Positions 2,437 through 13,510 of a DNA stretch of 17,850 bases are shown piece by piece (positions within the stretch are counted from its first letter, which is position 1; every line of letters starts with the position of its first letter). The position numbers and the translations under genes are program-made. The notes under the pieces are model-generated. The model made no database searches. It was given only the letters and a program-made list of their open reading frames with translations, and was not told the origin of the DNA. The DNA is from a virus (taxonomy: Duplodnaviria > Heunggongvirae > Uroviricota > Caudoviricetes). The stretch lies in the IMG/VR virus record IMGVR_UViG_2654587568_000021; one strand, written 5' to 3'.

Positions 2437-2634
2437 ATGTCTCAATCATTTATTCGTCTTTCTGAGGTTCAACGCCGTACTGGTTACAGCAAAGCGTGGA
2501 TTTATCGGCTCATCAAAGAACAGCGATTCCCTCAATCTGTAAAGATTGGAAGCCGATCAATTGCGTTTATTGAAAGTGAAATTGAAGAATGGATTAATCA
2601 GCGCATCGCTGAGTCGCGTGGCGAGGTAGCGTAA
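2437..2634 (+). CDS. alpA: AlpA-family transcriptional regulator / excisionase-like HTH protein, 65 aa
   Basis: AGGAG RBS (taggagtaaacATG). Sequence RLSEVQRRTGYSKAWIYRLIKEQRFPQSVKIGSRSIAF is the characteristic AlpA/MerR-like HTH as I recall it. Stop overlaps the next start (TAATG). Confidence 0.88.
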   Translation: MSQSFIRLSEVQRRTGYSKAWIYRLIKEQRFPQSVKIGSRSIAFIESEIEEWINQRIAESRGEVA

Positions 2635-3065
2635 TGAATAAGAAAAACCGCCCATTACAGGCGGCTAATTCAGATATTCGCGTATCTGATGTTACGCCCC
2701 TGACAAAATCCCTTCAAGCACCAAAGCGCACACCGAAAAAGCATCGTGCCCGAGTCTATATGCTGCGTACTGGTATAGAGGGATGGACAGAAAATGACAT
2801 TCTTAGCTACTGCCGTCTGTCTTCTGGTCGTAACTATGCAACAGAGTTAGAACGCCAGCTTGGAATTACTCTGGAGCGTATCGACGAAAAGAATCCTGAT
2901 GGTATCGGAACACACCTTCGCTACCGTTTCTCCTGCCGTGGTGATGTTCTGAAAGTGATCACTCATGTTAACCATCTTGCGAACATAAATGATCACAACG
3001 GACTTTCTCAGCAGGAAATTGCCGACATTCTGAAACTCTACCCGGACGCGTTTAACGCCGCCTAA
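2634..3065 (+). CDS. Hypothetical protein, 143 aa, translationally coupled to alpA
   Basis: Start overlaps the alpA stop. Basic N-terminus. No motif recognised. Confidence 0.6.
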   Translation: MNKKNRPLQAANSDIRVSDVTPLTKSLQAPKRTPKKHRARVYMLRTGIEGWTENDILSYCRLSSGRNYATELERQLGITLERIDEKNPDGIGTHLRYRFSCRGDVLKVITHVNHLANINDHNGLSQQEIADILKLYPDAFNAA

Positions 3066-3077
3066 CGGAGACTGAAA

Positions 3078-3911
3078 ATGAACATCGAAAAAAGCAGATT
3101 AATTTCTGAGGCCGCCCCTCATCTGAACGCCTCTCTGGGCACAATTAACGGTAATGAATTTGCCGCAATTGTCCCAGTTATTCCTGGTCATATAGGTGGG
3201 CGTGAAACCAATATTGTTAGCGCAAAAGCGTTACACAAAGCGTTGGGCGTGGGAAAAGACTTCTCTACATGGATCACTGATCGCATCTCTGAATATGACT
3301 TCACCATTGGGCACGATTACTCAGTCCATAAAACAATTTCCCCAAATTTGGGGAAAAGCCCGAATGGCGCGGCTTACAGCAAGATTAAGCAGTCTGGCAG
3401 ACCCGGCAAAGACTATCTGTTAAGTGTCGGAATGGCGAAAGAACTGGCAATGATCGAACGCAATGATCAGGGTCGCGCTATCCGCCGTTATTTCATCCAG
3501 TGCGAGGAAGAATTACAGCGTAGCGCGCCTGAAATCGCCGCCCGCTATCGTCGCCAGCTAAAAGCCCGTATCAGTGCCGCAAACAACTTTAAGCCAATGT
3601 GCGATGCGCTGAATATGGCCCGTGCCGAGATGGGGAAAACGACGCAGCAACACCACTACACAAACGAGAGCAATATGATTTCTCGTATCGTTCTTGGTGG
3701 GATAACTGCTAAGCAGTGGGCGCGGATAAATGGCTATTCTGGCGAACCTCGCGACCATATGAACGCAGAACAGCTTGAGCACCTCTCATATCTCGAAAGC
3801 ACCAATATCACGTTAATTGATATGGGCATGGAATATGAGCAGCGCAAAGGAGAACTCACCCGCCTGTCGCAACGCTGGCTCGCCAAGCGTCTGGAGGCGG
3901 TCAATGTCTAA
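3078..3911 (+). CDS. Phage antirepressor-like protein (AntA/Rha/KilA-C type), 277 aa
   Basis: GGAG RBS. The central segment DYLLSVGMAKELAMIERNDQGRAIRRYFIQCEEEL resembles the conserved core of AntA/KilA-C antirepressor domains as I recall them. Confidence 0.65.
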   Translation: MNIEKSRLISEAAPHLNASLGTINGNEFAAIVPVIPGHIGGRETNIVSAKALHKALGVGKDFSTWITDRISEYDFTIGHDYSVHKTISPNLGKSPNGAAYSKIKQSGRPGKDYLLSVGMAKELAMIERNDQGRAIRRYFIQCEEELQRSAPEIAARYRRQLKARISAANNFKPMCDALNMARAEMGKTTQQHHYTNESNMISRIVLGGITAKQWARINGYSGEPRDHMNAEQLEHLSYLESTNITLIDMGMEYEQRKGELTRLSQRWLAKRLEAVNV

Positions 3912-4086
3912 GCCAACAGGAACACCACAACCTCAAAAACGCTACAAAGATGCCCACGGAGCACTCGTTACTGTCGAAAGCGTGTCTCACAACCGAGTGA
4001 CGTTTTATCGCGACGGGTATCAATCGCCATGCGTACAACCGCTGGCGCGCTTCATGAAGGAGTTCGCGGAGGTTAACAAATGCTAA
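3904..4086 (+). CDS. Small hypothetical protein, 60 aa (MSKPTGTPQPQKRYKDAHGALVTVES...)
   Basis: ATG at 3904 overlaps the stop of the upstream gene (ATGTCTAA). Start chosen inside the longer ORF-track frame 3817..4086. Confidence 0.45.
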   Translation: MSKPTGTPQPQKRYKDAHGALVTVESVSHNRVTFYRDGYQSPCVQPLARFMKEFAEVNKC

Positions 4087-4741
4087 CCGTCCAGAAGAAG
4101 ATATTTTCACTGGCTGGTATGTCACCAAAATCCAGCAATATGACAGCAAAGTCTGGCATTAATACAGCAGATACAAGCAAAGTTTATCATTTTCTGGTGG
4201 TAGGAGCGGATGCCTTAACTATGTCAGAAATTACGGTCGATGGTGTTAGCGTTGAGAAGGTCAGCGGCTGCGCCAGAGAATTTCTGGTCGTAGATGGCTT
4301 TCTCTGCTCGCGTAGTGACTCCACAAAAACCTTCGTCCATACGCGCGACGTTAACGAAATGAGCGCGATGTATTGTGCATCTGGTGCTTCCAATACTGAG
4401 TTTTCGGAGTCCATAAAAAAGAGCTTGCCGTTATGCGGCAACACGGTTTATGGTTATAAGGCACCTCATAAAACGGGTGCCGGGATTGGCGTCCTGAAAA
4501 TTCTGAAGGCGACATATGACGCGCCGAGCGTCTTTTTTTATGTCGTAGGTCTGACTCACCCATTTTTTGGGCGTTGGTGTATAATCCAGCGCCTTTGTCA
4601 ATCAATGGTGGCTCAGGCGGGGGCTTCTTCGGAAGCGCCGGTATCCTTCAGAGCCGGTTACGCCAACCCTGTCTGGGCTACCACCAGCGAAATTGGCGTT
4701 TCCGGTGGTAGCGTAACCTGCTATCTGAAGGAGGCTGCCAC
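4080..4741 (+). CDS. Uncertain ORF: frame stays open from an ATG at 4080 (overlapping the upstream stop) through to 5147, crossing a terminator-like hairpin, a promoter and the Icd-like gene; the part shown here may be a real gene, a fused or frameshifted remnant, or non-coding
   Basis: ATGCTAA start/stop overlap at 4080-4086 suggests coupling. An open frame of about 220 codons before the Icd-like start is unlikely by chance, but the translated composition is not convincing and regulatory signals lie inside it. Confidence 0.25.
4518..4539 (+). terminator. Candidate rho-independent terminator (GACGC-loop-GCGTC followed by T7)
   Basis: 5-bp GC-rich stem at 4518-4522 / 4528-4532, then TTTTTTT at 4533-4539. 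Confidence 0.35.
4550..4590 (+). promoter_or_regulatory. Candidate sigma70 promoter with perfect -10 TATAAT (4580-4585) preceded by TG; weak -35
   Basis: gtgTATAATcc at 4577-4587. Lies about 155 nt upstream of the Icd-like gene. Confidence 0.4.
4590..4735 (+). ncRNA. Candidate C4/IsrK-like antisense RNA leader upstream of the Icd-like gene (position-based hypothesis)
   Basis: In P1-type immunity regions a C4 RNA lies between the promoter and icd. Here a promoter-to-icd leader of about 150 nt occupies the same position. No structure or homology was verified. Confidence 0.25.
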
Positions 4742-4936
4742 ATGCTGGCTACTACCCCTACCCAAAAACCGCAATTTATCTGGATTATCGCCGCAGTTCG
4801 CCGCGATTGCCCGACAATTACCGCCAAAATTCATCATATTGCTGCCGAGTCTGAACGCGATGCTCGCCGTTCTCTGGTGCGCGATCACGTCTGCTTTTTT
4901 GCTGGTCGTATCCGCATGGAGGTGGCACATGATTAA
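4742..4936 (+). CDS. Host cell division inhibitor Icd-like protein, 64 aa
   Basis: Strong RBS AAGGAGG 7 nt upstream. Sequence FIWIIAAVRRD...IHHIAAESERDARRSLVRDHVCFFAGRI fits the Icd-like pattern I recall (FxWxxAAxxR ... SE.xARRxL ... FAxR). Confidence 0.7.
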   Translation: MLATTPTQKPQFIWIIAAVRRDCPTITAKIHHIAAESERDARRSLVRDHVCFFAGRIRMEVAHD

Positions 4937-5147
4937 AACCTACGATGTGCATATGGATCCCCTCGAACGCACAAGCCAGATCATCACACTGACAGAAGTG
5001 ATTAACGACATTCTGGTGAGCAACTCTCCCTCACGAGACGAAAGGCTGAAGGCGTTACTCGCGATATTGGATCTCGCCGTTCGTGACGTTCATTTCCTGC
5101 TGGAAGGTGGACAAATGCCAGGAAAAACGGGGGCAACCAATGAATAA
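4929..5147 (+). CDS. Small hypothetical protein, 72 aa (MIKTYDVHMDPLERTSQIITL...)
   Basis: ATG overlaps the Icd-like stop (ATGATTAA), with GGAGG upstream. This is the C-terminal part of the long open frame 4080..5147. Confidence 0.5.
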   Translation: MIKTYDVHMDPLERTSQIITLTEVINDILVSNSPSRDERLKALLAILDLAVRDVHFLLEGGQMPGKTGATNE

Positions 5148-5334
5148 CTCAATTAATACCCCTCGCCTTACGTCAGCACTTCAATTAATTGAGCAAGTAG
5201 CGGCTGTCCTGGTTGCTGTCAGTCTTTCGGCTGAAGAAATGGACGCTGCTGATGTCGTGGATGCGATTAAAGCGCGCTCATCTTTGGTTAACGATGCCCG
5301 TGCAGAGCTGGTAATTCTTGGGGGTGAAAAATGA
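5140..5334 (+). CDS. Small hypothetical protein, 64 aa (MNNSINTPRLTSALQLIEQ...)
   Basis: ATGAATAA start/stop junction with the upstream gene. In frame with ORF-track entry 5083..5334. Confidence 0.5.
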   Translation: MNNSINTPRLTSALQLIEQVAAVLVAVSLSAEEMDAADVVDAIKARSSLVNDARAELVILGGEK

Positions 5335-5594
5335 ATATCAACTTAATTTATCGTCATCCGTGTGAGCTGGAAATTGAATCATTGCTGGGGAGAGAAGAGC
5401 CATATCCAGACACATTCACTCTCGCAGATTGCGCGACTGAACGGCTTACCAGAGCGCGCACAGGTCTGGTTCATGTGATGAATGAGATTGTTCCCTCGGT
5501 GGGAGGGGAACAGGCGACAGTAATCAATAGCTGGCTACAAAAAGTTACCTCCCTGATAGATATCAGTTTAATCGATGTGGAGAGTGCGAAATGA
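5331..5594 (+). CDS. Small hypothetical protein, 87 aa
   Basis: ATGA start/stop overlap with the upstream gene. Part of the coupled chain. Confidence 0.55.
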   Translation: MNINLIYRHPCELEIESLLGREEPYPDTFTLADCATERLTRARTGLVHVMNEIVPSVGGEQATVINSWLQKVTSLIDISLIDVESAK

Positions 5595-5812
5595 CCAACA
5601 TCCAGCTCATTGAAGCGCAATGTCGCATCGAACAGGTTCAGACTGTTTTAGGGTTCTGGCTTGAAGGGGCCAGCCCCAGCAACAGAGACAAGTTAATGAT
5701 TGGCGCGGTTATGTCACTGCTCAATGGCGTACCAGAAGCTATTCAGGAAGCGGACGAATTGTTGGGCAAATATGAGTTACAGAATCATTCAGGCGAGGCG
5801 AAACATGAATAA
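5591..5812 (+). CDS. Small hypothetical protein, 73 aa
   Basis: ATGA overlap with the upstream gene. Confidence 0.55.
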   Translation: MTNIQLIEAQCRIEQVQTVLGFWLEGASPSNRDKLMIGAVMSLLNGVPEAIQEADELLGKYELQNHSGEAKHE

Positions 5813-6407
5813 TTTCTTAACCTTCCATGCAGAAGCAACGCCTGACGGCGTAAACATCATGTACCGCAGCAACGATGGCATGACAGAACGCGTTGAGGCC
5901 GTCTCATATATTGATGCCGTAAATCGTCTGGATGCCGGGGATTATGACGATAAACCAGATGAAGGCATGTTTATACATCTCGCTATTGCCAGTGGCGGCA
6001 ACCAGGGATATTTCGATTACACATCACAGCATCACGTGATTATGTGGCGCTGGCTGATAGCAACAGCATTCATCAATGAAATGAGAAAGGAAAACGGCAC
6101 CGTCAGCATTATTGATGACAGTGGCAATCATTCCGTGGTTTCTGTTTATTCCAATGGCATCGTCGCCATGCCGCTGTATCCAGTAGCAGAGCGCCTCGCT
6201 ATGGCAAACAACATTGAGGGCGCAATGATCGAGAAATATGGTGTTGATGTCGGAACAAAGAATGCCATCATTTTTTACAGCAACATGTTCGATGTCGAAC
6301 AGGGAACACTCACTTCGTTTGGGCGAGAAGTGCTTGCCGATCTTCACAACAGCTTTATTGCCGAACTAAACGAAAACGGCATCCCAGAAGCACCAGTGAC
6401 GCACTAA
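5805..6407 (+). CDS. Hypothetical protein, 200 aa, immediately upstream of the primase
   Basis: ATGAATAA junction with the upstream gene and GAGG RBS. Start chosen inside ORF-track frame 5700..6407. Confidence 0.6.
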   Translation: MNNFLTFHAEATPDGVNIMYRSNDGMTERVEAVSYIDAVNRLDAGDYDDKPDEGMFIHLAIASGGNQGYFDYTSQHHVIMWRWLIATAFINEMRKENGTVSIIDDSGNHSVVSVYSNGIVAMPLYPVAERLAMANNIEGAMIEKYGVDVGTKNAIIFYSNMFDVEQGTLTSFGREVLADLHNSFIAELNENGIPEAPVTH

Positions 6408-6419
6408 ACGGGGGCCAGA

Positions 6420-9176
6420 ATGCGAAACATTGATCTTATCCGTCAGGTTATCAGTGCGTCTGAAAACAACTGGCCTCATGTGCTGGGCTGCCTGAACATA
6501 AATGTCCCTGACTCTCCGCGCCGTCATGCTCCCTGCCCTGCATGTGGGGGCAAAGATCGATTCCGGTTCGATGACAACGGGCGCGGTAGCTTCATCTGTA
6601 ATCAGTGCGGCGCTGGTGATGGGCTGGATTTAATTAAACGCGTAAATAACTGCGACACAACAGAGGCGGCGCTTCTTGCCGCTGATGTTCTGGGTATTGA
6701 TTACCGGACAACGGAAACACCAGAAGCCACCAGCCAGAAACGGGAACAACTGGAAACCGAGCGCCAGCGACGCGAACAGGAGCGCCTGAAAAGGGCAGAG
6801 AAGGACGAACAACAAAGACGGGATACGTTTTCCCGTCAGTTTGATGACATGCGCAGAAAGGCTGTAAACGGCAAATCTGATTATCTGGTTGCGAAAGGGG
6901 TAGGTGATTTTACATTCCCCGTGTTGCCCGATGGATCTCTGTTGCTGGCGCTGGTGGATAAATCCGGCGCAGTCACAGCAGCACAGACTATTACCTCACA
7001 TGGTGAAAAAAGACTCCTGACAGGTTCAGCAAAGCGAGGGGCATATCACGCCATAAACGCACCAGAAACAACACAGAGCATCTTAATCGCAGAAGGGCTG
7101 GCAACGGCATTATCTGCCCATTTAATTCGTTCAGAAGCGCTGACAGTGGCGGCGATTGATGCCGGGAACCTGTTATATGTCGCCCAGGTACTGCGGGATA
7201 AATTTCCTTCAGCACAAATCATCATTGCTGCGGATAACGACCACAGCGAAGGAAGACAAAACACGGGGAGAATAGCAGCAGAAAAAGCAGCTTTATCTGT
7301 TTCTGGATGGGTGGCATTACCCCCGACAGATCACAAAGCAGACTGGAATGATTACCACCAAAAACACGGCATTAAATGCGCCACAGAAGCGTTCAATAAG
7401 TCAATGTACCAACCACAGGGTAATGGCGTGAAACAGGAGCCACAGACCATTGAGGGAAGCGATTTTAAGGTTATGGATACCGACCCACTGAAACCAAGAA
7501 TAGAAAGCCGCGAGGATGGTATTTATTGGGTATCTCCGAGAGCTGACAGCCAGAGTGGAGAAATCATCAATAACGAAAGCTGGTTATGTTCTCCTTTAAG
7601 CGTTATCGGTACTGGCAGAGACGATAAAGACCAGTATCTCATTCTTCGCTGGCTGTCGTTTGGTTCTGAAACGCCGACAACCGCTGCCATTCCACTGGCT
7701 GATATTGGTGAACGTGAAGGATGGCGCACACTTAAAGCTGGTGGGGTAAATGTCACGACCAAAAGCAGCCTCAGAGCAATACTGGCAGACTGGCTACAAC
7801 GCAGTGGCTCTCGTGAATTGTGGCGTGTTGCTCATGCCACTGGCTGGCAATGCGGAGCGTACATCATGTCTGATGGGGAAATCATCGGAACACCTGAAAA
7901 TCCTGTGCTGTTCAGCGGGAGAAGCTCAGCCGCAGCCGGATATACCGTCTCAGGGAGCGCGAAAAGCTGGCGTGATAACGTGGCGCGTCTGGCCTTTGGT
8001 AACTATTCAATGATGACCGGGATCGGCGCAGCACTGGCAGCGCCATTGATTGGGCTGGTGGGCGCTGACGGGTTCGGTATTCATTTCTATGAGCAGTCGA
8101 GCGCAGGTAAGACCACCACGGCAAACGTGGCGAGCAGCTTATACGGCAACCCTGATTTACTGCGGCTGACGTGGTACGGAACCGCGCTGGGGCTGGCAAA
8201 TGAAGCCGCCGCCCACAATGACGGACTAATGCCGCTTGATGAAGTTGGTCAGGGCGCTGATCCTGTCAGTGTTTCACAGTCTGCCTATGCGTTATTTAAC
8301 GGTGTAGGGAAACTGCAAGGCGCTAAAGATGGTGGAAACCGGGATCTAAAACGCTGGCGTACAGTGGCAATCAGCACCGGAGAAATGGATTTAGAAACAT
8401 TTATCGCTACTTCCGGGCGAAAAACCAAAGCCGGGCAACTGGTGCGACTGCTGAATATTCCGTTGAGTAAAGCAGTACGCTTTCACGATTACCAGAACGG
8501 AAAACAGCACGCAGACGCACTGAAAGACGCTTACCAGCATCACCACGGCGCAGCCGGGCGTGAGTGGATTAAATGGCTGGCAGACCACCAGCAACAGGCT
8601 ATTAAAACTGTTCGTGACTGCGAAAGCAGATGGAGAAGCCTGATCCCATCCGATTATGGTGAGCAGGTTCACCGTGTAGCCGCGCGATTTGCCATTCTGG
8701 AGGCCGCATTGCTGTTAGGCGAGGTTGTAACAGGCTGGGATGCTCAGACATGCCGTGATGCGATACAGCACAGCTATAACGCATGGTTGCGCGAGTTCGG
8801 CACAGGTAACAAAGAGCATCAGCAGATTATTGAACAAACGGAGGCATTTCTTAATGCCTATGGGCTTAGCCGTTTTGCACCATTTCCATACAGCCCGGCA
8901 GATTTGCCCATCAAAGATTTAGCCGGATACCGTCAGCGTGGAGAACATGACGAAAGCCCAATGATTTTCTACACATTCCCGGCCACATTTGAAAAGGAGA
9001 TCGCATGTGGTTTCAACGCAAAACAGTTTGCTGAAGTGTTGAAAAAAGCCGGGATGCTAACCCCACCAAACAGCGGTCGTGGATACCAAAGAAAATCACC
9101 ACGTATTCAGGGACGACAAATAAACGTTTATGTACTCAATTACCAGCCAGGAGATTATAACTCATCCGAAGAATGA
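6420..9176 (+). CDS. P4 alpha-like DNA primase-helicase, 918 aa: N-terminal zinc ribbon, Toprim domain, C-terminal P-loop NTPase
   Basis: CPACGG...CNQCG zinc-binding motif. Toprim signatures IAEG and DNDH. Walker A SSAGKTTT and Walker B-like LMPLDEVGQG. Confidence 0.9.
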   Translation: MRNIDLIRQVISASENNWPHVLGCLNINVPDSPRRHAPCPACGGKDRFRFDDNGRGSFICNQCGAGDGLDLIKRVNNCDTTEAALLAADVLGIDYRTTETPEATSQKREQLETERQRREQERLKRAEKDEQQRRDTFSRQFDDMRRKAVNGKSDYLVAKGVGDFTFPVLPDGSLLLALVDKSGAVTAAQTITSHGEKRLLTGSAKRGAYHAINAPETTQSILIAEGLATALSAHLIRSEALTVAAIDAGNLLYVAQVLRDKFPSAQIIIAADNDHSEGRQNTGRIAAEKAALSVSGWVALPPTDHKADWNDYHQKHGIKCATEAFNKSMYQPQGNGVKQEPQTIEGSDFKVMDTDPLKPRIESREDGIYWVSPRADSQSGEIINNESWLCSPLSVIGTGRDDKDQYLILRWLSFGSETPTTAAIPLADIGEREGWRTLKAGGVNVTTKSSLRAILADWLQRSGSRELWRVAHATGWQCGAYIMSDGEIIGTPENPVLFSGRSSAAAGYTVSGSAKSWRDNVARLAFGNYSMMTGIGAALAAPLIGLVGADGFGIHFYEQSSAGKTTTANVASSLYGNPDLLRLTWYGTALGLANEAAAHNDGLMPLDEVGQGADPVSVSQSAYALFNGVGKLQGAKDGGNRDLKRWRTVAISTGEMDLETFIATSGRKTKAGQLVRLLNIPLSKAVRFHDYQNGKQHADALKDAYQHHHGAAGREWIKWLADHQQQAIKTVRDCESRWRSLIPSDYGEQVHRVAARFAILEAALLLGEVVTGWDAQTCRDAIQHSYNAWLREFGTGNKEHQQIIEQTEAFLNAYGLSRFAPFPYSPADLPIKDLAGYRQRGEHDESPMIFYTFPATFEKEIACGFNAKQFAEVLKKAGMLTPPNSGRGYQRKSPRIQGRQINVYVLNYQPGDYNSSEE

Positions 9177-9201
9177 GCTTCTTCATGTGCGTAGAAAAGG
9201 T

Positions 9202-9313
9202 GTTGGTTCAGTTGGTTCAGTTGGTTAAATTTGTAAAGAGTGTTGTTTTATAAGGATTTTATTCTTTTTATTGAACCAACACCGAACCAACAACACGGTA
9301 TTTTGAACCAACA
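9202..9313. repeat. Iteron cluster, candidate replication origin: three tandem GTTGGTTCA repeats, an AT-rich spacer, then three inverted TGAACCAAC copies
   Basis: Direct copies at 9202-9210, 9211-9219 and 9220-9228 (third degenerate). Inverted copies at 9272-9280, 9283-9291 and 9305-9313. Begins 26 bp after the primase stop. Confidence 0.6.
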
Positions 9314-9633
9314 CAATGTGACTGAATTGATGCGCACAACACCTGGCTGGCATCAGAGAGTGTTTTACGAGACTTTCGTAAAATCCTGTGTACAAGGGCG
9401 TGACGTTTTTGAAAGTGAGCACTACGAAATTTTCGTAGTTCAGAAAACAGCCCCTGAGAAGTTGTTATGCCTGTTCAGCAAACCATCCGCATAGCTGATC
9501 GCGAATCAAATTACCAATGGAGCCAGAAGCAAGGGCAGAACTGAAAAGCGCCTGCCGTGAAGAGTAATGCGACACCATAAATATAGTTTTTAGAGTCCAT
9601 AAAAAACCTGTCAAAACCTGACACACAGAACGA

Positions 9634-9665
9634 TGCTACCAGCTACTGAGCGGTGGCATTTTTTT
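9634..9665 (+). terminator. Candidate rho-independent terminator closing the int-primase gene block
   Basis: UGCUACC / GGUGGCA stem with one G-U wobble and an 11-nt loop, followed by T7 at 9659-9665. Confidence 0.35.
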
Positions 9666-9721
9666 GTGCTATTTGTTTCATATTTTGCAATCACAATGAT
9701 GAATGTTGCGTTTTATGAAAC

Positions 9722-9745
9722 TATAATGACTGTTGTTTTATACAG
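9722..9745 (+). promoter_or_regulatory. Perfect -10 hexamer TATAAT (9722-9727) immediately followed by a LexA-box-like motif CTGT-N8-ACAG (9730-9745); candidate SOS-regulated promoter of the cargo operon
   Basis: Sequence gaCTGTtgttttatACAGtt compared with the LexA consensus TACTGTATATATATACAGTA. AT-rich N8 spacer. The box sits between the -10 and the RBS at 9751. The -35 is weak. Confidence 0.45.
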
Positions 9746-9760
9746 TTCTAAGGGGGCGTT

Positions 9761-9934
9761 ATGGCTATTTCAGTAAAGCCAGTATTGATAAGTGAGAAGC
9801 AAATGGAAGCGATAAAGAAAATTCAGGAGGAGCAGCGTAAAAAATCAGAGGTAGGAGTTGCGCCAACGATCCACGAAATTGCTCGGGGATTAATGGATAA
9901 GGCGCTGGCTTACACTTTAACTGGACGTGGGTAA
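9761..9934 (+). CDS. Small hypothetical protein, 57 aa, first gene of the cargo operon (below the 60-aa ORF-track cutoff)
   Basis: RBS AGGGGG at 9751-9756, ATG at 9761, TAA at 9932-9934; translated by hand as MAISVKPVLISEKQMEAIKKIQEEQRKKSEVGVAPTIHEIARGLMDKALAYTLTGRG. Confidence 0.5.
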   Translation: MAISVKPVLISEKQMEAIKKIQEEQRKKSEVGVAPTIHEIARGLMDKALAYTLTGRG

Positions 9935-9938
9935 ATCA

Positions 9939-11405
9939 ATGGCTACGTGGCAACAGGGTATTAATTCTGGTGGTTTTCTGGCTGGCATTGGTGCGCAAAA
10001 CGAGAATGCGCCAAAGGCAAGCGACATTAACGCAACGCTTGGTCTGATCCGCGAAAACAATGAACTGGCTCGCTCAGGTGCAAATAACGTTGCTCTGACA
10101 GGTCTTCGTGGTCTGGCTGGCGTTGCTGATATTTATAAGCAGCAGCAACAGCAGGAGCGTAAAGCGGCATTCCAGAAAGGTTATGCAGATGCTTATGCGT
10201 CCGGTGACAGGGAGCAGATGCGTAATCTTATTACAGCATTCCCAGAAGAGTTTGAGGAAGTCCGTAAAGGGATGAGTTATGTCGATGATGCTCAAAGGGA
10301 TGATTATGGCAATCTGGCGCTCAAAGCACAGGTAGCCTCATCGCTTGGTCAGGGCGCATTTGGCAGGTTCATGATGGATAATGAGCAGGAGATGCGTCGT
10401 TTAGGTATCCCTCCAGAAACTATTGCTGAAATGCAGGTTAATGACCCGCAGGGCTTCCAGCATTTCGCAGGTAATCTGGCGCTGTTTTCTCTCGGTCATG
10501 AGAAGTATTTCGATATCAAAGATCAAATGGAAGGTCGGGATATTGAGCGTGGCAAGTTGGCAGAGACAATCCGCAGCAATCAGGCTGGCGAAGCACTTCA
10601 GGCGAGAGGGCAGGATATTAGCCGAGCAAATGCGTTAACGTCAGCATATGCACCAACAGCAGCAATGCAGAATTACAATCAGTACGCGCAAATGTTAAAG
10701 GCGGATCCAGAGGGGGCGGCGGCATTTGCGGCAGCGGCTGGAATTAATACAAACGCCAAAAAATTAATGAGTGTTAGAGAAAACGATGATGGCACTGTCA
10801 CAAAATACTACACAGACGGAAGTGAAGAGCAGGGAAAACTAAACCAGCCAATATCTGGAGATGGGTTTCGTCCAATAGCTTTGCCAACAGCCCAAAAGAT
10901 CATGGAAAAGTCGCCAGAAGGGGCTAAAAAAGCTGCTGGATTTGCATACAGGGTTAGGGATGCTCTTGATTCAATAGATACACTGAAAGACCAGCTTAGC
11001 CCACAGCGAGTGGCGATCATTAATAATGCTTTGGGTAATGGGACGCTGGCTAACTTAACGCTCAGCCCAGCAGAGCAGCAATACGTTGTTAATGCTAATG
11101 ACGCAATAATGGCAATACTCCGTCAGGAAACAGGGGCATCTATCCTACCAGCTGAAATGTCCAAATATTATCAAATGTATTTCCCTCAGCCTGGTGATTC
11201 CACAAAAACCATTGATACCAAGCGCCGGAAGATGGAAAACCAGTTCAATTCGCTGAAAGCTGCTTCTGGTCGAACTTATGATGCTTTGCGGGTTATTTCA
11301 GCAGTTGACAGAGGAACTGCTTCTTCGTCGCAGACATTGCCGCAATCTGAGCAGGTATCACAGCCAGCAGCCAGCAGTAACTTTTCTTCACTATGGGGTG
11401 ATTAA
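9939..11405 (+). CDS. Large hypothetical protein, about 488 aa, Ala/Gln/Gly-rich; no family recognised. An alternative GTG start at 9927 gives the 492-aa ORF-track version
   Basis: Long intact ORF with an ATG 4 nt after the upstream stop. Stop overlaps the next start (TAATG). Confidence 0.8.
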   Translation: MATWQQGINSGGFLAGIGAQNENAPKASDINATLGLIRENNELARSGANNVALTGLRGLAGVADIYKQQQQQERKAAFQKGYADAYASGDREQMRNLITAFPEEFEEVRKGMSYVDDAQRDDYGNLALKAQVASSLGQGAFGRFMMDNEQEMRRLGIPPETIAEMQVNDPQGFQHFAGNLALFSLGHEKYFDIKDQMEGRDIERGKLAETIRSNQAGEALQARGQDISRANALTSAYAPTAAMQNYNQYAQMLKADPEGAAAFAAAAGINTNAKKLMSVRENDDGTVTKYYTDGSEEQGKLNQPISGDGFRPIALPTAQKIMEKSPEGAKKAAGFAYRVRDALDSIDTLKDQLSPQRVAIINNALGNGTLANLTLSPAEQQYVVNANDAIMAILRQETGASILPAEMSKYYQMYFPQPGDSTKTIDTKRRKMENQFNSLKAASGRTYDALRVISAVDRGTASSSQTLPQSEQVSQPAASSNFSSLWGD

Positions 11406-13510
11406 TGGCTAAAGCATGGAAAGATGTTATCGCCTCTCCACAGTATCAGGCGTTAGCACCAGAACAAAAAGCGCAGGCTCAGGAGCAATACTTCAATGAA
11501 GTCGTGGCCCCGCAAGCCGGAGAAAGTGTAGAGCAGGCTAAGCAGGCTTTTTATGCTGCCTATCCACTACCATCAACGAATGAAATAGACCGATCCCAAT
11601 CAGCAACTCAAAATATTCAACATACATCATCTGATAATTCTCTTGCGTCAGGGTATGCAAAGTTAGCTACTCAGCAAAGAGAGGGGCTTGAGCGTTCAGC
11701 AGAACAGGGAGCCAGTCTTGGGGCTGCGATGCGCGATGCTATAACAGGCGAAAGCCGAATGACTCCAGAGATGGAGAGACTGCAAAATGTCGCCTCTGCC
11801 CCAGAATTGAACTCACTAAGCATGGATGCCCTAAAGGCTGGATGGTCTCAACTTTTCGGCTCTGACGCGTCTCAGGAAAAGATTCTTCAGGGAATGGGGG
11901 CGACATTAAGGCAGGATGAGAAGGGGAATACTATCGTTTCTCTGCCATCAGGTGATTATGCCCTGAACAAGCCGGGTTTATCACCGCAAGACCTGACCTC
12001 GTTTCTTGCTAATGCGTTGGCGTTTACACCAGCGGGCAGGGCTGGAACGGTGCTTGGTGCCATAGGAAAATCAGCAGCTACAGATTTAGCACTACAGGGA
12101 GCCACCAGCCTTGCTGGTGGAGAAGATATTGATCCGTTACAAACGGTAATTTCTGCTGGCATTGGTGGTATTGGTAAGGGGCTGGAAAATACAGCGAGTG
12201 CGGTTTCGAGGGCTGTTCGTGGTGATATGTCGCCTGAAGCAAAGGCTGCTGTCGACTTTGCATCGGAAAGAAATCTGCCGTTAATGACCAGTGACATGCT
12301 GAAAGATAAAACCTTTATGCAGAGTCAGGCTCAGACATTAGGCGAAAGAGTTCCTTTTTTTGGAACCGGTAAGAATCGGCTGAATCAACAACAAGCACGA
12401 GAAAATTTAGTCAGAACATTTAGCGATGGTCTGGGTGGCATTTCTGATAAACAGCTTTATGAATCTGCGACTAAAGGGCAACAAAAATTCATTGAGGCAG
12501 CAGGAAAGCGATATAACCGCATAATTGACGCTATGGGGGATACCCCTGTCGATCTCTCAAACACGGTAAAAGCTATCGACAATCAGATTGCCGTGTTAAG
12601 CCGCCCGGGCAAATCTCAGGATAGAGCCGCGGTAAAAGTCTTGCAGCAATTTAAAGACGATATCACCAGCGGACCAAATGACCTGCGTCTGGCGAGGGAA
12701 AACAGAACCGATCTTCGAAAGCGATTTATGGCGTCATCTGACACTGTTGATAAAGATACGCTCCAGAAAGCCAGCGATATTATCTACAAGGCATATACGG
12801 CGGATATGAAAAAAGCCGTAGCCAAAAATCTTGGAGCAGACGAAGCCATTAATATGGCAAGGGTTGATCGCTCATGGTCTAAATTCAATGACATGATGGG
12901 AAGAACGCGCGTTCAAAAGGCAATAGCCAGCGGCAAGGCCACGCCTGAGGATGTAACAAAACTCGTTTTTAGCCAAAGCCCATCAGAACGTTCTCAGCTT
13001 TACAGGCTTCTGGATGACAATGGTAGGCAAAACGCACGAGCAGCCATAGTTCAGAATGCTGTAGATAAGGCGACTGATCCGTCTGGAAATATCAGTGTTG
13101 AGAAGTTTATTAATGCGTTACACCGGAACAGGAAGCAATCAGCAACTTTCTTTAAAGGCGTACATGGAAAGGAACTGGACGGCGTTATTAAATACCTCAA
13201 CGATACAAGACACGCGGCAAAAGCGAACGTTCAAAACTTAAATGGTCAGCAGCTTTATGGATTGTTAGTTGGTGGTGGCATCATAAACGCAGCAGTATTA
13301 GCGGGGATGCTAAAAACGGCTGCGTTTGTTGTTCCTGCTGCTGGTGCCGTAGGCGGAGCAGCGAAGGCATACGAAAGCCCTGTTATACGAAATGCCTTGT
13401 TACGTCTGGCAAATACGCCAAAAGGTAGCACAGCATATGACAGAGCGATCAGTACGGTCACACAATCGCTCACCAGAGTCGCACAGGCATCACAAAAAGA
13501 AGCTCAATAA
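11405..13510 (+). CDS. Large hypothetical protein, 701 aa, with a C-terminal Gly/Ala-rich hydrophobic segment (LYGLLVGGGIINAAVLAGMLKTAAFVVPAAGAVGGAA); function unknown
   Basis: Long intact ORF coupled to the upstream gene and followed by a terminator hairpin. No enzymatic motif recognised. Confidence 0.85.
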   Translation: MAKAWKDVIASPQYQALAPEQKAQAQEQYFNEVVAPQAGESVEQAKQAFYAAYPLPSTNEIDRSQSATQNIQHTSSDNSLASGYAKLATQQREGLERSAEQGASLGAAMRDAITGESRMTPEMERLQNVASAPELNSLSMDALKAGWSQLFGSDASQEKILQGMGATLRQDEKGNTIVSLPSGDYALNKPGLSPQDLTSFLANALAFTPAGRAGTVLGAIGKSAATDLALQGATSLAGGEDIDPLQTVISAGIGGIGKGLENTASAVSRAVRGDMSPEAKAAVDFASERNLPLMTSDMLKDKTFMQSQAQTLGERVPFFGTGKNRLNQQQARENLVRTFSDGLGGISDKQLYESATKGQQKFIEAAGKRYNRIIDAMGDTPVDLSNTVKAIDNQIAVLSRPGKSQDRAAVKVLQQFKDDITSGPNDLRLARENRTDLRKRFMASSDTVDKDTLQKASDIIYKAYTADMKKAVAKNLGADEAINMARVDRSWSKFNDMMGRTRVQKAIASGKATPEDVTKLVFSQSPSERSQLYRLLDDNGRQNARAAIVQNAVDKATDPSGNISVEKFINALHRNRKQSATFFKGVHGKELDGVIKYLNDTRHAAKANVQNLNGQQLYGLLVGGGIINAAVLAGMLKTAAFVVPAAGAVGGAAKAYESPVIRNALLRLANTPKGSTAYDRAISTVTQSLTRVAQASQKEAQ

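Follow-up and report, generated by a model that had tools for sequence, protein, structure and literature searches.

Overlapping small genes ahead of the primase of an EcCIMP1-family island: an operon most likely switched by a small antisense RNA that acts on the first gene

The locus and its overlapping genes

The stretch of DNA analysed here, referred to as the window, comprises 17,850 nucleotides of a Caudoviricetes record (IMG/VR IMGVR_UViG_2654587568_000021) and is, judged by its sequence, an EcCIMP1-family phage-inducible chromosomal island that is integrated at tRNA-Thr. The integration site, tRNA-Thr beside proA, is that of EcCIMP1, and the gene order integrase, alpA, antirepressor, Ash/Icd region and DUF927 primase is common to both elements; identity to the MP1 island is 99.4% in int, 93.3% over positions 2443-6405 and 98.4% over 6420-9909. 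EcCIMP1 is an experimentally verified satellite, for which it was itself demonstrated that excision and transfer require an induced helper phage, with AlpA as the helper-induced master regulator and with a strengthening effect on superinfection immunity (PMC11773190). The original prediction had placed a chain of six small genes ahead of a satellite primase, a location borne out by the identity of 93-99% to this verified satellite. A strictly P4-like satellite was considered and rejected, as the capsid-hijacking genes psu, sid and delta are not annotated in the near-identical islands; among the large ORFs downstream of the primase, a Pfam scan identified a P22 injectosome protein. The features of the region are as follows:

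2437 to 2634, plus strand: alpA (Pfam Phage_AlpA, 8.9e-20), first cistron of the coupled chain
2634 to 3065, plus strand: orf143, 65-99% conserved in 13 loci, annotated by PGAP as 'PM1773 family' in some genomes
3078 to 3911, plus strand: AntA/AntB-family antirepressor gene, antA/B (Pfam AntA, 1.3e-21)
3904 to 4086, plus strand: DUF4222 gene (Pfam DUF4222, 6.1e-25), with an 8-nt overlap with antA/B (ATGTCTAA)
4080 to 5147, plus strand: long Eta-like frame of 355 codons, the 'ash family protein' of PGAP
4461 to 4538, plus strand: IsrK/seqA-like RNA (full-length match to Rfam RF01394, 67.8 bits, E 6.7e-13)
4601 to 4688, plus strand: C4/CI-like antisense RNA (full-length match to Rfam RF01695, 79.9 bits, gathering score 45, E 1.3e-14)
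4692 to 4734, plus strand: Icd-like leader with target sites a2 (4692-4699) and b2 (4724-4732), as read from the sequence
4742 to 4936, plus strand: Icd-like gene, 64 aa, homologue of P4 kil and putative RNA-gated entry cistron
4929 to 5147, plus strand: o2, 72 aa, annotated separately in E. coli LWY24 (WP_000598361.1)
5140 to 5334, plus strand: o3, 64 aa, joined to o2 by ATGAATAA
5331 to 5594, plus strand: o4, 87 aa, joined to o3 by ATGA
5591 to 5812, plus strand: o5, 73 aa, joined to o4 by ATGA, predicted three-helix protein
5805 to 6407, plus strand: o6, 200 aa, conserved, joined to o5 by ATGAATAA
6420 to 9176, plus strand: primase-helicase with zinc ribbon, Toprim and DUF927 (Pfam; PHROG phrog_1139 at 5.7e-178)

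All five start/stop overlaps noted earlier between the Icd-like gene and the 200-aa protein were confirmed by reading the junctions, which are, in order, ATGATTAA (-8, the 8-nt overlap of the Icd-like gene and o2), ATGAATAA (-8), ATGA (-4), ATGA (-4) and ATGAATAA (-8); the original description of the junctions as identical applies to the two that share the octamer ATGAATAA, whereas the remaining three differ. Between o6 and the primase, which is the last cistron, lies a 12-nt gap containing GGGGG, and no intrinsic terminator was found on the plus strand from 4540 to 9176. A Shine-Dalgarno-like element with proper spacing is present at every start (-6.8 to -11.7 kcal/mol against the anti-Shine-Dalgarno), and with a reasonable element of its own at every cistron, some independent initiation is likely. 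The overlap chain, as read from the junctions of the window, extends upstream to alpA (2437), the stop of which overlaps the following start by 1 nt (TAATG), and the start of the long frame sits on the DUF4222 stop (ATGCTAA). This upstream extension had been overlooked in the original prediction, as had the identity of o2 with the 3' end of the 355-codon frame and the presence of the controlling RNAs C4 and IsrK.

A lack of conservation as coding sequence, which had been considered from the outset as evidence against the chain, was checked for in homologue searches, and all six ORFs proved to be conserved at the protein level as families. Of the 36 junctions that lie between the Icd-like gene and the homologue of o6 in 12 related loci of other Enterobacterales, 35 are overlaps of -4 or -8 although the intervening genes differ, hence the arrangement is not due to chance. 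The six overlapping small genes are real.

Two RNA genes and a long frame across them

The Icd-like gene matches NCBIfam NF033153 (phage_ICD_like) at 3.7e-20, its protein is similar to the kil part of the P4 cI/eta ORF (BLASTP, 1e-9), and its 5' part contains a C-rich, G-poor stretch (4760-4837, C/G ratio 2.08). The IsrK-like RNA carries an intrinsic terminator (stem at 4518-4532 with a T run after it) and two target sites, a1 (4485-4492) and b1 (4502-4509), which co-vary with the loops of the C4-like RNA, namely loop b' (4643-4652) and the single-stranded a' element (4660-4666). Of the two corresponding sites in the icd leader, b2 overlaps the Shine-Dalgarno sequence GGAGG (4730-4734) of the Icd-like gene. 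Across 14 loci, the predicted duplexes of the C4 loops with the icd leader average -24.4 kcal/mol for cognate and -13.6 for non-cognate combinations, those with the IsrK side -23.0 and -11.8 kcal/mol, and the cognate duplex is best or tied-best in every row. At least 11 RNA specificity types exist, between which the C4 loops vary in concert with the icd leader and the IsrK-like RNA, and the predicted pairing of the C4 loops with the Icd Shine-Dalgarno region is shown by this covariation. A promoter scan returned no consensus promoter for the RNAs, and positions read by eye are tentative; a TATAAT promoter-like element at 4580-4585 lies inside a 39-bp segment that is missing from several loci, hence promoter positions are uncertain.

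The long frame runs across the IsrK-like and C4-like RNAs and then, in the +1 frame, across all of the Icd-like gene; o2 makes up its final 72 codons. It is open over 237-385 codons in 16 of 16 loci, in which the other two frames contain 6-22 stops each (the chance of it staying open is 1e-4 to 2e-8 per locus), its start is usually located on or beside the stop of the upstream gene, and it is annotated at full length by PGAP in many genomes. The Pfam Phage_ASH match covers residues 124-232 of the frame (nt 4449-4776) and coincides with the two RNA genes. In most loci the long frame is in frame with icd, like eta/kil of P4, while in the window type a 1-nt difference (gccgctATG vs gccacATG) shifts it and no stop occurs in the +1 frame over icd; in the in-frame loci examined (L003-L011, L013, L014) a +1-frame stop is present in 11 of 11, at +43 (L010: +46). 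The shifted arrangement recurs in P0197, P0212, P0244 and P0216, where the downstream gene is only 39-56% identical. The shift may nevertheless be a single ancestral event, in which case the fact that it recurs does not count as independent evidence of selection. The protein sequence of the N-terminal part of the frame is not conserved between loci, which fits translation for its own sake and could also mean that the frame is weakly used.

It is rather unlikely that the overlaps reflect only genome compaction under a packaging size limit and play no regulatory part, with each gene translated from its own ribosome-binding site: while 4- and 8-nt overlaps are common in phage operons, Shine-Dalgarno elements are present for all cistrons and overlaps are also found upstream of the RNA region, this explanation does not account for the first cistron's Shine-Dalgarno being the target of a co-varying C4-like RNA, nor for a frame that stays open across the whole RNA region in every one of the 16 loci. 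Moreover, at the related Gifsy-1 isrK locus an AUGA overlap has been demonstrated to couple the translation of orf45 and anrP (PMC4825925).

Conservation and turnover of the small proteins

For o2, a family alignment comprises 10 diverged homologues with 36-52% identity and a conserved start methionine, and versions fused to the long frame occur in diverged relatives. Homologues of o3 are found at 56-70% identity, in P0180 (70%), P0230 (62%) and the C-terminus of P0216 (56%). The E. coli island copies are all at least 96.6% identical and offer few sites, with 6 synonymous vs 6 non-synonymous changes in o2 and 7 vs 3 in o3; these counts are too small to be decisive, so that the coding status of both genes is decided by the distant homologues. 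Homologues of o4 share 38-57% identity, and versions of it are present in 10 of 12 distant loci (50-55% identity in seven, a weak match of 25% in L012, and diverged 92- and 167-aa versions). An alignment of 27 homologues (32-47% identity) was obtained for o5, which matches PHROG phrog_20558 at 2.9e-9 and for which AlphaFold2 predicts three helices (mean pLDDT 89.6), and o6 has 484 homologue matches. Concatenated queries in a word-indexed protein search mostly retrieved frameshift-fused gene calls from read assemblies, probably owing to homopolymer errors, and a concatenated query gave usable results in an exhaustive HMMER search.

The check by homology and structure prediction proposed earlier thus yielded conserved families and a helical model of o5, but no informative match for o2-o6: Pfam, NCBIfam, PHROGs and PADLOC were uninformative apart from unnamed PHROG families for o5 and o6, fold searches with the o5 model returned generic helical matches only, and PDB profile searches with the small proteins gave nothing better than E = 0.012. 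An origin of o2, o3 and o5 as tandem paralogues, suspected since all three are helix-loop-helix-like, was rejected, as BLASTP detected no significant similarity among them; the o2/o5 pair was also covered by a profile comparison (hhalign, probability 0.5%). A relationship of o6 to P4 ORF106 was also considered. DUF5375, the family of P4 ORF106, was suggested for o6 by precomputed PF17345.9 matches recorded for three of its homologues, yet hmmscan for PF17345 found nothing in o6 or in two of these three, the hhalign probability for o6 and ORF106 is 1.1%, which is not significant, and the only feature in common is their place immediately ahead of the primase.

The set of genes between icd and o6 varies from locus to locus. 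None of the 12 distant (non-Escherichia-type) loci has o2 or o3, some of them lack o4 and some lack o5, and unrelated cassettes of 59, 65, 66 and 92 aa substitute for the absent genes. The original prediction took the tight coupling to imply stoichiometric co-expression, a claim not supported by the data, as the small genes are swapped independently between related elements. That the overlaps set fixed ratios of small proteins acting as one complex ahead of the primase is accordingly improbable: obligate partners would be expected to co-occur, which they do not across the related loci, even though five overlaps follow one another and o5, as probably do o2 and o3, belongs to a kind of small helical protein that frequently has binding partners. 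This independent variation argues against a fixed or obligate complex and for propagation of a regulatory decision. On the latter reading, o2-o6 are independent, swappable accessory modules, which by their position are most plausibly helper- or host-directed factors. The earlier guess of helper-interference factors is hence a reasonable one, given that P4 epsilon, the helper derepressor, occupies the equivalent position, though no homology to epsilon was found (BLASTP of o2-o6 against P4 epsilon and orf151 gave no similarity).

There is very little likelihood that o2 is just the tail of the 'ash family' frame, or that the long frame is an annotation artefact of the conserved RNA with only the six short genes being real, since, although PGAP annotates the 355-aa frame or the Icd-like gene and rarely o2, the Pfam Ash match falls on the two RNA genes and the N-terminus of the frame is unconserved, stand-alone o2 homologues of 68-76 aa have a conserved first methionine, E. 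coli LWY24 has o2 as a gene of its own and a long frame that stops at icd, the frame is open well past the conserved RNA segment in every locus, and eta, its counterpart in P4, is described as being translated when the late promoter becomes active (PMC10111431).

Proposed control and comparison with known systems

The reading that we prefer, with a probability of about 0.6, is that the chain is the early (replication) operon of the satellite, built like the P4 left operon and P1 immI, in which C4 RNA gates icd, the overlaps pass on one on/off decision and the long frame serves as an RNA-insensitive, helper-induced route. Most likely, a small antisense RNA that acts on the first gene switches the operon on and off, as in P4 and P1; translational coupling, termination by Rho and the translation of the long frame are what we infer from the anatomy and from relatives. 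The RNAs and the long overlapping frame, through which a single decision would be handed down the operon, provide a better reason for the coupling than stoichiometry.

In the quiescent island, transcripts would begin shortly before the IsrK-like RNA, at a promoter-like element that is conserved, and yield the C4-like RNA, the two exposed elements of which would pair with two sites within these transcripts, in one case covering the Icd/Kil-like gene's Shine-Dalgarno sequence. If Icd is not translated, no ribosomes would reach the cistrons behind it, because each starts inside the end of the preceding one, and Rho would terminate transcription on the naked, C-rich RNA of the 5' part of icd, a step proposed by analogy with P4 timm, P1 c4-icd-ant and the AUGA coupling of Gifsy-1 orf45-anrP. 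Once a helper phage turns on alpA, ribosomes would enter far upstream and proceed through alpA, orf143, antA/B, the DUF4222 gene and the 355-codon frame, in which they would cross both RNAs and, in the +1 frame, icd, to stop at the o2 stop that overlaps the o3 start. Since ribosomes that are already elongating can do without the blocked Shine-Dalgarno, this route should be RNA-insensitive and would carry expression via o3, o4, o5 and o6 to the primase. The overlaps would leave no untranslated gap or exposed RNA, and would not set protein ratios. More tentatively, and with somewhat less than even odds, the chain from alpA to the primase may have two ribosome entry routes into o2, one RNA-gated via icd, with reinitiation at ATGATTAA, and the other RNA-blind and alpA-driven via the long frame, with o2 made in 72-aa and 355-aa forms and the small genes forming a cassette array of helper- or host-directed factors.

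About 9% of the complete E. coli genomes harbour an EcCIMP1-family island, and on the present analysis P4/P1-style RNA-gated, translation-propagated control would extend to this family of phage-inducible islands, in many mutually exclusive RNA specificities. Two annotations can be amended, as o2 is a real gene usually omitted by PGAP, and the 'ash family protein' call spans two RNA genes and overlaps the Icd-like gene. The conserved small proteins are concrete candidates for effects on the helper phage Kapi1. This kind of system is already known; the window adds one modest new twist and leaves the field's view of satellites unchanged.

Among the closest known systems, EcCIMP1 (E. coli MP1, helper Kapi1) shares the regulatory and replication module with the window and has the same or near-identical Icd, o3, o4, o5 and o6, while o2 is unannotated there; it differs in that a further two coupled genes (113 and 123 aa) separate o6 from the primase, in its RNA specificity (L002 type), in lacking the DUF6387 gene and in the cargo after the primase. 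In the accessible part of the EcCIMP1 paper, no analysis of the small genes or the RNAs was found (PMC11773190).

With the immI region of P1/P7 (c4, icd, ant), the window has in common an RNA of the Rfam C4 family, a first gene of the Icd family and an antisense target at the icd ribosome-binding site. In P1 immI, expression downstream hinges on icd translation. The coupled downstream gene of P1/P7 is the antirepressor Ant, whereas in the window an antirepressor-family gene lies upstream, and five small proteins and the primase follow downstream. The isrK-orf45-anrP region of Salmonella Gifsy-1 resembles the window in its IsrK-family RNA, terminator and read-through, and IsrK and seqA are homologous (PMC4825925); in Gifsy-1, however, IsrK activates a two-gene unit in trans, while the window also has a C4-like RNA and many more cistrons.

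The window also resembles the left operon of P4 (PLE/PLL, seqA-CI-seqC, eta/kil, epsilon, orf151, orf106, alpha), in which the order is the same: an AlpA/Vis-like gene, a frame over the immunity RNA, kil/icd, small genes with 8-nt overlaps, and the primase. Differences to P4 are the primase, which in the window is of the DUF927 type (918 aa), three extra genes (orf143, antA/B and DUF4222) between alpA and the RNA region, and the long frame, which is shifted by one base and ends in the gene after icd rather than with the kil homologue. Profiles of C4 and isrK match Gram-negative PICIs, and Eta, which is coupled to the alpA homologue ahead of it, keeps termination from occurring (PMC10111431). 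Both systems have a C4/CI-like RNA with two co-varying target regions, and in P4 epsilon directly follows kil with an 8-nt overlap, in the position held by o2 in the window.

A chain of overlapping small genes ahead of the primase

The primase is preceded by six small genes, and each of the last five starts inside the one before it.

Genes of the chain (window coordinates)
4742-4936, Icd-like gene (icd), first of the chain
4929-5147, o2
5140-5334, o3
5331-5594, o4
5591-5812, o5
5805-6407, o6
6420-9176, primase, after a 12-nt gap

The original prediction of such a chain holds for its genes and junctions, which read, from icd to o6, ATGATTAA, ATGAATAA, ATGA, ATGA and ATGAATAA, well above chance; its description of the junctions as identical was slightly overstated, as overlaps occur at all five but the identical octamer at only two. 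A Shine-Dalgarno-like element lies ahead of each start, and on comparative grounds all six ORFs qualify as genes. The Icd-like protein matches NCBIfam NF033153 (3.7e-20), and an exhaustive HMMER search returned diverged relatives for every small protein. There are stand-alone homologues of o2 (68-76 aa, 36-52% identity, a common first Met in all), homologues of o3 (56-70%) and o4 (38-57%), at least 27 family members for o5 (32-47%) and 484 relatives for o6; phiP27, Stx phages and Klebsiella phages also carry o6 homologues (32-37%) in their early regions. PGAP frequently leaves o2 without annotation but gives it its own gene call in E. coli LWY24. In some RefSeq genomes the o4 protein (e.g., WP_251120493.1) is evidently misannotated as "nicotinic acetylcholine receptor subunit beta." Several database gene calls, among them the related proteins P0130, P0133, and P0196, are Icd-o2 fusions that change frame at a six-T run (4894-4899) near the 3' end of icd; these are probably homopolymer assembly errors, but ribosomes might conceivably also slip into the o2 frame at this run.

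The tight coupling had also been taken to imply stoichiometric co-expression of the small proteins, and gene swapping under conserved overlaps argues against this part of an otherwise partly correct interpretation. Across 12 loci from Kluyvera, Enterobacter, Klebsiella, Kosakonia, Lonsdalea, Shimwellia, and other genera, 35 of the 36 junctions from icd to the o6 homologue overlap, o2 and o3 are missing throughout, most loci carry o4-like genes and o5 alternates with an unrelated family of 66-69 aa; further cassettes of 59, 65, 92, and 167 aa occur as well. The comparison favors small genes that are independent accessory modules set into a conserved coupling scaffold.

Searches with o2-o6 gave no family, defence-system or solved-structure match, and no similarity of the small proteins to P4 epsilon or orf151 was detectable. 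A three-helix protein is confidently predicted for o5, with generic structural matches only, and the predicted model of o6 is mediocre and without a meaningful match. The similarity of o6 to P4 ORF106/DUF5375 was not significant; paralogy among o2, o3, and o5 was undetectable by BLASTP, and for o2 and o5 by profile comparison as well.

A C4-like RNA and the ribosome-binding site of the Icd-like gene

Upstream of icd lie two RNA genes and two sets of target sites.

RNAs and target sites (window coordinates)
4461-4538, IsrK/seqA-family RNA with terminator (Rfam)
4485-4492 and 4502-4509, second copy of both targets, within the IsrK-like RNA
4601-4688, C4/CI-family RNA, full-length match (Rfam)
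4643-4652, C4 hairpin loop AUCCUUCAGA, complementary to UCUGAAGGA at 4724-4732
4660-4666, single-stranded ACGCCAA next to the C4 loop, complementary to UUGGCGU at 4693-4699

The target site at 4724-4732 overlaps the GGAGG of icd. When 14 related loci are aligned, the C4 elements, the icd-leader targets and the IsrK-side targets co-vary as three sets, with mean summed duplex energies of -24.4 kcal/mol for cognate vs. -13.6 for non-cognate pairs in the icd leader and -23.0 vs. -11.8 kcal/mol on the IsrK side; the cognate pair ranks top or joint top in every row, and at least 11 specificity types can be told apart. The comparison strongly supports pairing of the C4-like RNA with the ribosome-binding site of icd, the chain's first gene. 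At least four C4/target specificity types occur within E. coli islands that have near-identical o2-o5 genes, which indicates that recombination exchanges the RNA immunity region separately from the flanking genes. Past the IsrK terminator and ahead of the C4 RNA, a 39-bp segment (4557-4595) contains a TATAAT (4580-4585) and is missing in the related loci L003, L004, L007, L009, L014, and L017, hence a separate C4 promoter is optional at best. Beyond the IsrK terminator, the + strand showed no further intrinsic terminator.

A long Eta-like frame and the proposed mechanism

The coupled chain exceeds six genes. From alpA (2437), the junctions are a 1-nt overlap, a 12-nt gap, an 8-nt overlap and a 7-nt overlap, followed by the long Eta-like frame (which contains the icd/o2 junction), overlaps of 8, 4, 4, and 8 nt, the 12-nt gap and the primase. 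The start ATG of the long frame (4080-5147, 355 codons) overlaps the stop codon of the upstream DUF4222 gene (ATGCTAA); the frame crosses both RNAs and, in the +1 frame, the entire icd, and ends as o2. A frame of 237-385 codons is open over the RNA region in all 16 loci, with 6-22 stops in each other frame, and in most loci it is in phase with icd, exactly as in P4 eta/kil. A single-base difference ahead of the start codon (gccacATG vs. gccgctATG) shifts it in the window type, and the +1 frame over icd is stop-free; all 11 in-frame loci examined have a +1-frame stop over icd at +43 (+46 in L010). As the gene after icd overlaps it by 8 nt, it shares the phase of the shifted frame, and the shifted arrangement is also found in relatives whose downstream gene is just 39-56% identical, in one case o3-like. 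The protein sequence of the N-terminal part is not conserved, which suggests that ribosome transit rather than a product is the selected trait. PGAP calls alternate between a 355-aa "ash family protein" and an Icd-like gene plus truncated "ash" pseudogene. The Pfam "Ash protein family" match (PF10554, 4449-4776) coincides exactly with the two RNA genes and the target sites, so that much of the Ash-family conservation may reflect RNA constraints. We found no description of a frame-shifted Eta-like frame that overlaps icd and terminates in the gene after it, the sole such feature here.

We propose, with a probability of roughly 0.6, an RNA-gated icd, a coupled chain, a Rho stop and an RNA-blind bypass through the long frame. 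What the data show is pairing of the RNA at the icd ribosome-binding site (from covariation), overlaps that are conserved, and a conserved long frame; the other steps are inferred from P4, P1, and the isrK locus, where AUGA coupling of orf45-anrP was shown experimentally (PMC4825925). In the quiescent island, the C4-like RNA would block icd translation, few ribosomes would reach the downstream cistrons, and Rho would terminate in the 5' part of icd, which is rich in C and poor in G (4760-4837, C/G ratio of 2.08). Upon helper induction, ribosomes that entered at alpA would cross the RNA region and icd by way of the long frame, out of reach of the C4-like RNA. Having released at the o2 stop, they would start again at o3 and continue to the primase.

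Relation to EcCIMP1 and P4

Near-identical E. coli copies of the window are integrated at the tRNA-Thr adjoining proA, and its integrase, regulatory module and primase are 93-99% identical to those of EcCIMP1. According to PMC11773190, EcCIMP1 is a phage-inducible chromosomal island whose excision and transfer require the P22-like helper Kapi1, with helper-induced alpA as master regulator; the passages and terms covered of that paper contain no analysis of the small genes and RNAs. The o2-o3 segment is present in 490 of 5426 complete E. coli genomes (identity of at least 96.6% throughout). EcCIMP1 and many relatives (L002 at 7614-8319; L015, L016, L024) have two more coupled genes between o6 and primase, of 113 and 123 aa with weak mutual similarity (E = 6e-4) and joined through ATGCGTGA or ATGCGTAA overlaps, whereas the window lacks both. 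An int-alpA RNA (1276-1343; Rfam RF02996, 46.7 bits) directly follows the integrase gene, and the DUF6387 gene between integrase and alpA (1358-2239, 293 aa), absent from EcCIMP1, may be accessory cargo. The region 9927-13510, whose nucleotide sequence does not align with the corresponding cargo of EcCIMP1, encodes a P22 injectosome translocase homologue (PF16928, 1.3e-83), then a 701-aa protein that matches no family. Ejection-protein homologues carried by a satellite whose helper is P22-like could be related to the reported superinfection immunity.

C4 and isrK profiles match Gram-negative PICIs, and in P4 eta is coupled to an upstream alpA homologue and its translation prevents termination (PMC10111431). 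The Icd-like gene is a homologue of P4 kil, and the P4 left operon has the same layout of RNA, kil/icd, small genes with 8-nt overlaps and primase; the gene directly after kil in P4 is epsilon, the helper derepressor. The system is of a kind already known, a P4/P1-type RNA-gated coupled operon in an island of the EcCIMP1 family.
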